A stretch of 7,114 nucleotides of DNA from a virus. Lineage: Duplodnaviria > Heunggongvirae > Uroviricota > Caudoviricetes. Below, in pieces: positions 2,492 through 2,768 of the stretch (position 1 is its first letter; each line of letters begins with the position of its first letter). The DNA is taken from the IMG/VR virus record IMGVR_UViG_2698536312_000011; one strand, written 5' to 3'. The notes beneath the pieces are model-generated. The model was not told where the DNA came from. It saw nothing but the letters and a program-made list of their open reading frames with translations, and did no database searches. The translations under genes and the position numbers were made by a program.

Positions 2492-2527
2492 TTGACCACC
2501 ACTATAACCTAGGTTATCTTTAAGCCA
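2492..2527 (+). promoter_or_regulatory. pL-like early-left promoter: -35 TTGACC (2492-2497), 17-bp spacer, -10 TATCTT (2515-2520), predicted transcription start at A 2527
   Basis: The sequence from 2527 (ATCAGCAGGACGCACT) matches the start of the lambda pL transcript as I remember it. The -35/-10 spacing is the same as lambda pL (TTGACA, 17 bp, GATACT, then 6 nt to +1). Confidence 0.7.
2504..2517. promoter_or_regulatory. Perfect 14-bp palindrome ATAACCTAGGTTAT in the pL spacer, overlapping the -10; candidate repressor operator (OL)
   Basis: The palindrome is seen directly and sits where lambda OL1 sits. Related half-sites occur upstream (ATAACTTA at 2458-2465 and its reverse complement TAAGTTAT at 2485-2492). 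Confidence 0.5.
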
Positions 2528-2588
2528 TCAGCAGGACGCACTACTCACCAGGGCGGTGAATATACAACGATTCGAATATGAATCTACG

Positions 2589-2603
2589 GCGCTGACAAAG
2601 CGC
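2589..2603 (+). promoter_or_regulatory. nutL boxB hairpin GCGCTGACAAAGCGC (5-bp stem, GACAA pentaloop)
   Basis: A perfect hairpin about 62 nt downstream of the predicted pL start and upstream of the N gene. The sequence is identical to the phage P22 boxB RNA as I recall it. No clear boxA consensus (CGCTCTTTA) was found upstream. Confidence 0.7.
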
Positions 2604-2613
2604 AATAACCAAA

Positions 2614-2756
2614 GTGAACTTTGGGGTGTGGTGAAGGGTTCATGGACGGGAATATGTCGCACGTAAAGCGGCGAGGCCTGCGGGACTATTGCCGAATTGA
2701 AGTAGGCCGAAACAGGTCAAAATGGGTCTCCCACCTACCACACCACCAAAGTTCAT
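2614..2756 (+). promoter_or_regulatory. Long-range imperfect stem in the N leader (5' arm about 2614-2637, 3' arm about 2733-2756), analogous to the lambda N-leader RNase III processing structure
   Basis: GTGAACTTTGGGGTGTGGTGAAGG near 2614-2637 is nearly the reverse complement of CCACCTACCACACCACCAAAGTTCAT near 2731-2756. The 3' arm ends just before the N Shine-Dalgarno. The motifs CTTTGGGGTGTG and CACACCACCAAAG also occur in the lambda N leader as I recall it. Confidence 0.6.
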
Positions 2757-2768
2757 CAGGAGGTCTAT

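Follow-up and report, generated by a model that had tools for sequence, protein, structure and literature searches.

The nutL site and a pan-lambdoid N-leader helix in the pL leader of a prophage related to 933W, H-19B, and HK106

INTRODUCTION

One counterpart of the element considered here is the pL leader of phage lambda, in which the hairpin next to N is sensitive to RNase III and modulates the autoregulation of N. RNase III positively regulates lambda N mRNA (PMC9032294, citing Kameyama 1991). According to PMC5725501 (citing Wilson 1997, 2002), N together with Nus factors at NutL, which lies about 200 nucleotides (nt) upstream, represses N translation, and the leader between NutL and N is highly structured. 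A catalytically dead, binding-proficient RNase III mutant also affects N mRNA (PMC8708148). In this study, we analyzed positions 2527-2768 of a 7,114-nt stretch of DNA, IMG/VR record IMGVR_UViG_2698536312_000011 (the window, meaning that whole stretch). By its sequence, this region is an already catalogued nutL site with its N leader, belonging to a type of prophage that is very common, and it contains a long-range helix that is conserved across lambdoid N leaders.

RESULTS

Identity of the leader

Over positions 2526-2800, the window is 99.3-99.6% identical to many Shiga toxin (Stx)-converting phages, including 933W (99.3%), and 98.5% identical to HK106. Among 5,426 complete E. coli genomes, 334 carry a near-full-length leader, one of them (E. 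coli FDAARGOS_944) with 100% identity, and RefSeq annotates nothing at the leader in these genomes. In the 933W record, the annotated nutL corresponds to window positions 2537-2603, and in the HK106 record the annotations mark the start of the pL transcript (window 2527), a putative boxA (2537-2545), and boxB (2589-2603). H-19B is identical from +1 to approximately position 2632 and again from CCAAAGTTCATCAGGAGG onward, such that its nutL, outer stem, and ribosome-binding site are those of the window while its interior is unrelated. The N proteins of 933W, H-19B, and HK106 belong to the same family as that of the window. The window differs from these three phages in its oL/pL operator region (2440-2526), which is of another immunity type, and in carrying IS630 in place of the immunity region. 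An earlier reading of this DNA, made from the sequence alone (the sequence-only reading), had taken the combination of elements to point to a mosaic nut region. The combination is not peculiar to this locus; the leader is the standard one already annotated in phages of the 933W, H-19B, and HK106 type. On alignment to known nutL regions, the boxB and leader matches on which that reading relied were found to be conserved in these same phages.

The features assigned from the promoter to the end of N are as follows.

2492-2520, plus strand: pL promoter candidate from a promoter scan, with -35 element TTGACC (2492-2497), a 17-nt spacer, and -10 element TATCTT (2515-2520)
2527-2544, plus strand: 5' end of the pL transcript, with +1 at A2527, from alignment and from where the annotations of HK106 and 933W fall in the window
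2545-2559, plus strand: leader hairpin 1, UCACC-AGGGC-GGUGA, from the minimum free energy (MFE) fold, pair probabilities of 0.75-0.82, and alignment
2555-2568, plus strand: position homologous to boxA, reading GGTGAATATACAAC in the window versus GCTCTTT(N2-3)ACAAC in relatives, from the nut-site table and a boxA scan
2569-2584, plus strand: spacer hairpin GAUUC-GAAUAU-GAAUC, followed by UACG (2585-2588), with pair probabilities of at least 0.99
2589-2603, plus strand: boxB hairpin GCGCU-GACAA-AGCGC, the predicted N-binding site of nutL, from its identity to P22 and the HK106 and 933W annotations
2609-2624, plus strand: alternative local hairpin CCAAAG-UGAA-CUUUGG, 6 bp, -4.8 kcal/mol when folded alone
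2614-2632, plus strand: 5' arm of the long-range helix, from the MFE fold, a repeat finder, pair probabilities, and covariation
2633-2736, plus strand: hairpin interior, a branched module exchangeable between phages, from comparison of phage leaders
2737-2756, plus strand: 3' arm of the long-range helix, in which A2745 is bulged and CCAAAG comes next, from the same four lines of evidence as the 5' arm
2758-2763, plus strand: N Shine-Dalgarno sequence AGGAGG, read from the sequence; it starts 2 nt past the helix, and the geometry in lambda is the same
2769-3152, plus strand: N antiterminator gene of the 933W/H-19B type, 127 amino acids, from the open reading frame (ORF) list and Pfam PF25694 N_peptide (E = 2.1e-15)

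The long-range helix between nutL and N

The MFE fold of 2527-2780 has a free energy of -86.2 kcal/mol (z = -3.56), and none of 200 shuffled sequences folded as well. It comprises the hairpins at 2545-2559 and 2569-2584, boxB, and a helix between 2614-2632 and 2737-2756, located between nutL and the N ribosome-binding site. The helix has 19-20 bp with A2745 bulged, and the partition function gave pair probabilities of 0.95-1.0 for 18 pairs. The arms were also recovered as inverted repeats, namely, 2615-2624/2746-2755 (100% complementary) and 2620-2632/2737-2749. The sequence-only reading had proposed pairing of 2614-2637 with 2733-2756; folding supported the pairing of 2614-2632 with 2737-2756, whereas the inner ends, 2633-2637 and 2733-2736, were not paired together, and the arms had therefore been drawn 4-5 nt too long on that side. 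The distance from boxB to the helix is 10 nt and that from the helix to the Shine-Dalgarno sequence is 2 nt, with the AUG at 2769.

Viral contigs were scanned for an exact 14-mer around the pL start, which gave approximately 65 genuine pL leaders spanning many different boxA, boxB, and N types. Forty distinct arm pairs were aligned without gaps, anchored on UUUGG/CCAAA. The arms were picked after a duplex-energy filter, and the few leaders failing it still showed shorter versions of the helix on inspection. In nearly all leaders, there is pairing between a segment with (C/G)UUUGG at its end and CC(A/U)AA(G), the latter lying a few nt upstream of the N Shine-Dalgarno sequence. Across the 40 distinct leaders, 85.6% of the cells were standard pairs versus 32-41% when the partner was slid by 1-3 columns, and changes on both sides were seen in 17 of the 24 pairs. 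The covariation score was 0.507 compared with 0.065-0.116 in the slid controls, and 0 of 500 shuffles reached the observed values. The helix is thus conserved with compensatory changes. Beside the ribosome-binding site, the outer stem is wholly different between N classes and yet remains complementary: GUGAAC/GUUCAU in the class of the window, GAGAUGG/CCAUUUC in the P22 class, and GUUGGC/GCCAAU, GUUGC/GCAAC, and AGUGGUU/GCCACUU in others.

The helix is therefore a pan-lambdoid N-leader helix and not specifically a lambda-like one. In lambda, the pL leader has the same order of elements, an identical first 16 nt, and the bulged A, and its stem cores CUUUGGGGUGUG and CACACCACCAAAG are those of the window; the spacing from boxB to the helix is 11 nt (10 nt in the window) and that from the helix to the Shine-Dalgarno sequence is 2 nt in both. 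Lambda differs in having boxA CGCUCUUA, a short spacer, boxB GCCCUGAAGAAGGGC, another interior, and another arginine-rich motif in N. The P22 nutL, in the leader of gene 24, shares with the window an identical 15-nt boxB and the same helix architecture (UUUGG/CCAAA, a bulged A, and then 7 bp). It differs in its canonical boxA (CGCTCTTTAAC), in the lack of a spacer hairpin, and in its outer and inner stems, its interior, and the rest of gp24. The sequence-only reading had described this leader as a P22-type boxB joined to a lambda-like stem. The start and the stem cores are indeed shared with lambda, but the stem is not lambda specific, as P22 and nearly every other lambdoid leader have the helix. 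Since P22 itself has it, the presence of a P22-type boxB beside the stem is in itself no evidence of mosaicism.

The 5' arm also includes a G/U-rich, boxC-like run, GGGGUGUGGUG (2623-2633). By analogy only, a run of this kind in the rrn leader likewise supplies the 5' strand of a long-range duplex that lies downstream of a nut-like site (for pre-16S rRNA, the RNase III site and boxC are described in PMC8632103 and PMC2724277). Unlike the window, the rrn leader contains no N and its boxA is strong, and its duplex encloses 16S rRNA instead of a 100-nt module.

The nutL site and its lack of a canonical boxA

The boxB hairpin at 2589-2603 (GCGCTGACAAAGCGC) was identical, letter for letter, to the boxB in the annotated P22 nutL (BK000583), a match that the sequence-only reading had proposed. 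Its GACAA loop is a GNRA-like pentaloop, and its pair probabilities were 0.99-1.0. The spacer hairpin that precedes it has the dyad symmetry characteristic of H-19B-type nut sites. Four different stems were found ahead of TACG and boxB, namely, GATTC/GAATC, GGTGA/TCACC, GTCGA/TCGAC, and GGAC/GTCC, the last being that of the 933W nutR; the spacer stem covaries across relatives and the 933W/H-19B nutR. The nut architecture of the N-class relatives is boxA (GCUCUUU, 2-3 nt, ACAAC), hairpin, UACG, and boxB, into which the 933W/H-19B nutR also fits, with a weak boxA, GCUAUUUU.

Neither the lambda boxA (CGCUCUUA) nor the rrn boxA (UGCUCUUUA) was found upstream of boxB in the window, in agreement with the sequence-only reading. 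In the segment from +1 to boxB, CGCACTAC came closest to the lambda form, with 3 of 8 positions mismatched, and 71% of shuffled sequences did equally well; the best match to the rrn form was mismatched at 4 of 9 positions and was equaled by 84% of shuffles. Both matches are thus at chance level. At the position homologous to boxA (2555-2568), the RNA reads GGUGAAUAUACAAC. The boxA core has been lost, the ACAAC flank alone is retained, and hairpin 1 takes its 3' strand in part from this segment. The boxA core had 0-1 mismatch in all other sampled N classes with the exception of those represented by leaders L093 (MNAQER, 2 mismatches) and L108 (MTRRTA, 3 mismatches).

The sequence CGCACTACT at 2537-2545 is the putative boxA of the HK106 record, and the nutL annotated in 933W begins with it. 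Its match to boxA was no better than chance. It was also found alongside a perfect boxA located further downstream in L025, L026, L033, L055, and L113, and the 5' ends of L061 and L077 are near-identical to those of the leaders carrying CGCACTACT. Because it co-occurs with a true downstream boxA in related leaders, CGCACTACT is probably not a boxA, and the HK106 annotation is probably spurious, this sequence being just part of the conserved 5' end.

The N protein of H-19B is said, in the title of Neely & Friedman 2000, to depend less on host factors, with boxA and NusB/S10 reportedly being dispensable for it. A nutL without boxA fits this reported property. Functional work on the H-19B nutR is also available (PMC3526286).

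The boxB loop GACAA goes with N termini of the form GN(A/S)(K/R)(T/S)RR(H/R)ER in P22 and in the class of the window, which is a correlation only. In close relatives whose N has GS..GRRRERRA, boxB has a GAAA loop.

The pL promoter, transcript start, and N

The pL promoter candidate sits within the oL operator region, which is of a non-933W immunity type, and its position is that of the annotated pL of HK106. The first 16 nt of the predicted transcript, ATCAGCAGGACGCACT (2527-2542), are identical to lambda pL +1 to +16, and P22 has the first 13 nt of this start in common. With the promoter at 2492-2520, +1 at 2527, and N at 2769, nutL lies within the pL transcript between +1 and N. At the place of hairpin 1, lambda has CACC-AUGAA-GGUG.

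N is annotated at the same place in 933W, H-19B, and HK106. The N terminus of the protein is MTRRTQFKGNSRSRRRERLKAKA, with the 933W/H-19B-class start MTRRTQFKGNSRSRRRER, and this, together with the N_peptide match, identifies a cognate N with an arginine-rich motif downstream of nutL. Residues 99-127 (the C-terminal 30 amino acids; window 3065-3152) are 67% identical to the C terminus of P22 gp24 (...YAAGxRKSKQxTAR). In a BLASTP comparison of N with gp24, the alignment was limited to these 30 residues and the remainder was not alignable. The shared C terminus is a further sign of mosaicism, in this case at the level of domains. A likeness between the arginine-rich motifs, GNSRSRRRER in N and GNAKTRRHER in P22 gp24, was seen by manual alignment only. 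A search of PDB sequences with N gave no relevant match.

In the lambda RefSeq record (L004, NC_001416 35037-35438), N is annotated from an upstream start as a 402-nt ORF that runs into the leader hairpin. The lambda start in register with those of all the other N genes (MDAQTRRRERR) lies 78 nt downstream of the RefSeq start.

The interior module

The interior of the helix (2633-2736) is 90-96% identical in CL707, phi80, and ArgO145-type phages, the nutL and N types of which differ; the identity is approximately 90% in phi80 and ArgO145, and CL707 has a lambda-type nutL and a lambda-type N. In H-19B, lambda, and P22, the interior is replaced by unrelated sequence. More than 20 interior types, from 28 to approximately 230 nt, were present in the leader set. 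In H-19B, the replaced segments of the arms, GGUGAAUGCAG and CUGUAUUCACC, are again complementary to each other. The mosaicism suggested by the sequence-only reading was thus borne out in the form of exchangeable modules, with H-19B having the same nutL and outer stem around another interior and CL707 having the interior of the window between a lambda-type nutL and N.

An ORF beginning at the ATG at 2642 was considered as a possible coding sequence within the interior and was ruled out. The homologous modules give products of 58, 37, 19, and 17 amino acids, and since this length is not conserved, the module is not coding.

An alternative hairpin and tRNA-like relatives

The CUUUGG of the 5' arm has two possible partners. 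An upstream copy of CCAAAG (2609-2614) competes for it with the 3' arm, giving the alternative local hairpin at 2609-2624. When the full leader was folded, this hairpin did not appear in the equilibrium ensemble. Among the distinct lambdoid leaders, 37 of 39 have it, and its variants, CCAAAC/GUUUGG, UCAAAGC/GCUUUGA, and CCAGAAC/GUUUUGG, covary, which suggests a conserved choice between the two pairings. With region 1 defined as CCAAAG (2609-2614), region 2 as CUUUGG (2619-2624), and region 3 as CCAAAG (2746-2751), the choice would be between 1:2 and 2:3.

In leader L098 (691-758), the helix encloses a sequence that scored 37.1 bits against the Rfam tRNA family (threshold 29, E = 1.4e-6), and ARAGORN also called a tRNA there, with an abnormal 6-nt anticodon loop. 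The acceptor stem of this sequence, GGUGUGG/CCACACC followed by A and CC, is the stem sequence of the window helix (2625-2631/2738-2748). In L049, L043, and L062, T-loop-like hairpins, GGTTCGA(T/C)TCC or GGTTCAAATCC, adjoin the 3' arm; Rfam gave no significant tRNA match for the L049 and L043 leaders. No tRNA was found by ARAGORN in the interior of the window, even with a lowered threshold, and no cloverleaf could be recognized there. An Rfam search of 2500-2800 at E values up to 10 returned only a meaningless long noncoding RNA match and no tRNA. No curated family thus covers the leader.

Genomic context

The surroundings of the leader comprise the following.

352-1152: chromosomal gene for a periplasmic solute-binding protein (Pfam SBP_bac_3), beyond IS630
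1183-2340, minus strand: IS630 element, 99.4-99.6% identical to annotated IS630 copies; context, outside the leader
1206-2237, minus strand: IS630 transposase ORF, with Pfam DDE_3 and helix-turn-helix (HTH) domains
After IS630, plus strand: lambdoid early-left region, reading rightward

IS630 occupies the place of the immunity region upstream of oL/pL. Positions 2335-2444 are 77% identical to the lambda region upstream of oL, and approximately 2395-2530 match the oL region of three Stx1 phages at 87.5-90.8% identity (SH2026Stx1, 90.8%; Stx1_JNE110649, 90.8%; and Stx1a_10051, 87.5%). The repressor side of the intact version in E. coli FDAARGOS_944, comprising a cI-type repressor, cro, and cII, is absent from the window, and with this immunity region missing, pL and N stand apart from their own repressor gene. 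None of the complete E. coli genomes in the collection carries the IS630/phage junction, and an exact 30-mer spanning it had no match in a one-genome-per-species collection.

The early-left genes downstream of N (3155-7114) are unlike those of 933W. They include several small ORFs without a Pfam match, a 226-amino-acid AAA_24/AAA_22 ATPase at 4605-5285, and a 195-amino-acid ORF at 5282-5869. This region matches E. coli prophages in parts only, with coverage of at most 70%.

DISCUSSION

On the evidence presented above, we consider it probable that 2527-2768 is the untranslated pL leader of a 933W/H-19B/HK106-type prophage in which N synthesis is under lambda-like control by RNase III and N. Our analysis establishes the sequence identities, the predicted fold, and the evolutionary conservation of the helix; N binding, RNase III cleavage, and translational control are inferred by homology with lambda. 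The arginine-rich N terminus of the downstream N would be expected to bind the P22-type boxB, and boxB-bound N would then join RNA polymerase together with NusA, leading to read-through of the terminators of the left operon. The helix would place nutL, which is 10 nt upstream of it, beside the N Shine-Dalgarno sequence, so that the N-modified complex would repress N translation. A cut by RNase III within the helix would part nutL from the ribosome-binding site and relieve this repression, and N synthesis would in this way be tied to RNase III activity. Since the window retains the stem cores and the bulged A of lambda and spaces boxB and the Shine-Dalgarno sequence from the helix as lambda does, the function is most likely the same as in lambda, and RNase III control of N translation in this leader, which the sequence-only reading had also raised, is plausible.

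Several points weigh against this proposal. RNase III cleavage and autoregulation are both extrapolated from lambda, the only one of these phages for which RNase III dependence has been shown. As repression in lambda involves Nus factors and the nutL of the window is without a boxA, the complex that represses translation here may be a different or a weaker one. In addition, a plain RNase III duplex does not explain the invariant UUUGG/CC(A/U)AA core, the bulged purine, or the upstream copy of CCAAAG. Finally, the prophage is truncated, with IS630 in place of the immunity region, and the element may be a relic in this genome.

This last point can be taken further, in that the element may now be the inert remnant of a decayed prophage with no current function. 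IS630 (1183-2340) directly adjoins the region upstream of oL with a chromosomal solute-binding-protein gene beyond it, the cI-type repressor, cro, and cII of the intact version are absent from the window, and the junction was seen in no complete E. coli genome of the collection. Against this, the promoter and the leader are intact, as is the N ORF, and the leader is 100% identical to the E. coli FDAARGOS_944 copy. This lack of decay argues for a recent truncation or for continued use, and we regard an inert relic as possible but on the whole unlikely.

Other alternatives concern what the helix does. It might be purely architectural, holding nutL beside the N ribosome-binding site to allow autoregulation, or simply insulating the folding of nutL, with no cut by RNase III. 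The conserved geometry, with boxB 10 nt before the helix and the Shine-Dalgarno sequence 2 nt after it, and the covariation require no cleavage, and the wide variation of the interior modules means that RNase III determinants may not be conserved. On the other hand, the usual substrate of RNase III in E. coli is a near-perfect duplex of approximately 20 bp, which is the size of this helix. The lower stem is also nearly identical to that of lambda, which comes from an RNase III-regulated leader (PMC9032294), and we consider a role without cleavage improbable. Still more improbable is that the helix is a tRNA-derived module, with its acceptor-like GGUGUGG/CCACACC and A-CCA, that is processed by an enzyme such as RNase P instead of, or besides, RNase III. 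In its favor are the same stem around the sequence of L098 that passes the Rfam tRNA threshold and is called by ARAGORN, the T-arm-like hairpins that adjoin the 3' arm in L049, L043, and L062, and the order CCACACC (2738-2744), A2745, and CCA (2746-2748) in the window itself. However, the interior of the window is not tRNA-like according to either ARAGORN or Rfam, the L049 and L043 leaders have no significant tRNA match, the CCA is base paired to the UGG of the 5' arm, and 8 of the 40 leaders have CCU instead.

It is conceivable, though unlikely, that the helix is more than an RNase III duplex, its invariant core forming a three-part switch and the helix itself being descended from a tRNA acceptor stem and one of a set of interchangeable RNA-processing modules that uncouple nutL from the N ribosome-binding site. 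In such a scheme, the 1:2 hairpin would arise early, while the RNA is being transcribed, or re-form once cleavage has occurred. It could then either govern whether the helix forms by the ribosome-binding site or act as a cap at the 3' end of the nutL RNA that is set free. The descent of the helix from a tRNA acceptor stem may be reflected in GGUGUGG/CCACACC, the discriminator-like bulged purine, and CCA. Lambdoid phages would then swap modules that are either RNase III duplexes or tRNA-like substrates.

N is the first gene expressed upon induction of lambdoid prophages, and in Stx phages it is one of the drivers of the early cascade of transcription ahead of toxin production. Given this place of N in the early cascade, control of its synthesis bears on the dynamics of induction. 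Since the leader is essentially the published sequence of 933W, H-19B, and HK106, the locus itself adds no new biology. What is gained is quantitative covariation evidence for the N-leader helix across N specificity classes, together with the indication that the "putative boxA" recorded in the database for this type of nutL probably does not represent a boxA. Leads for work on N autoregulation come from the alternative hairpin and from the tRNA-like relatives; these are the only points with some novelty, and they apply at the level of the family rather than of this locus.

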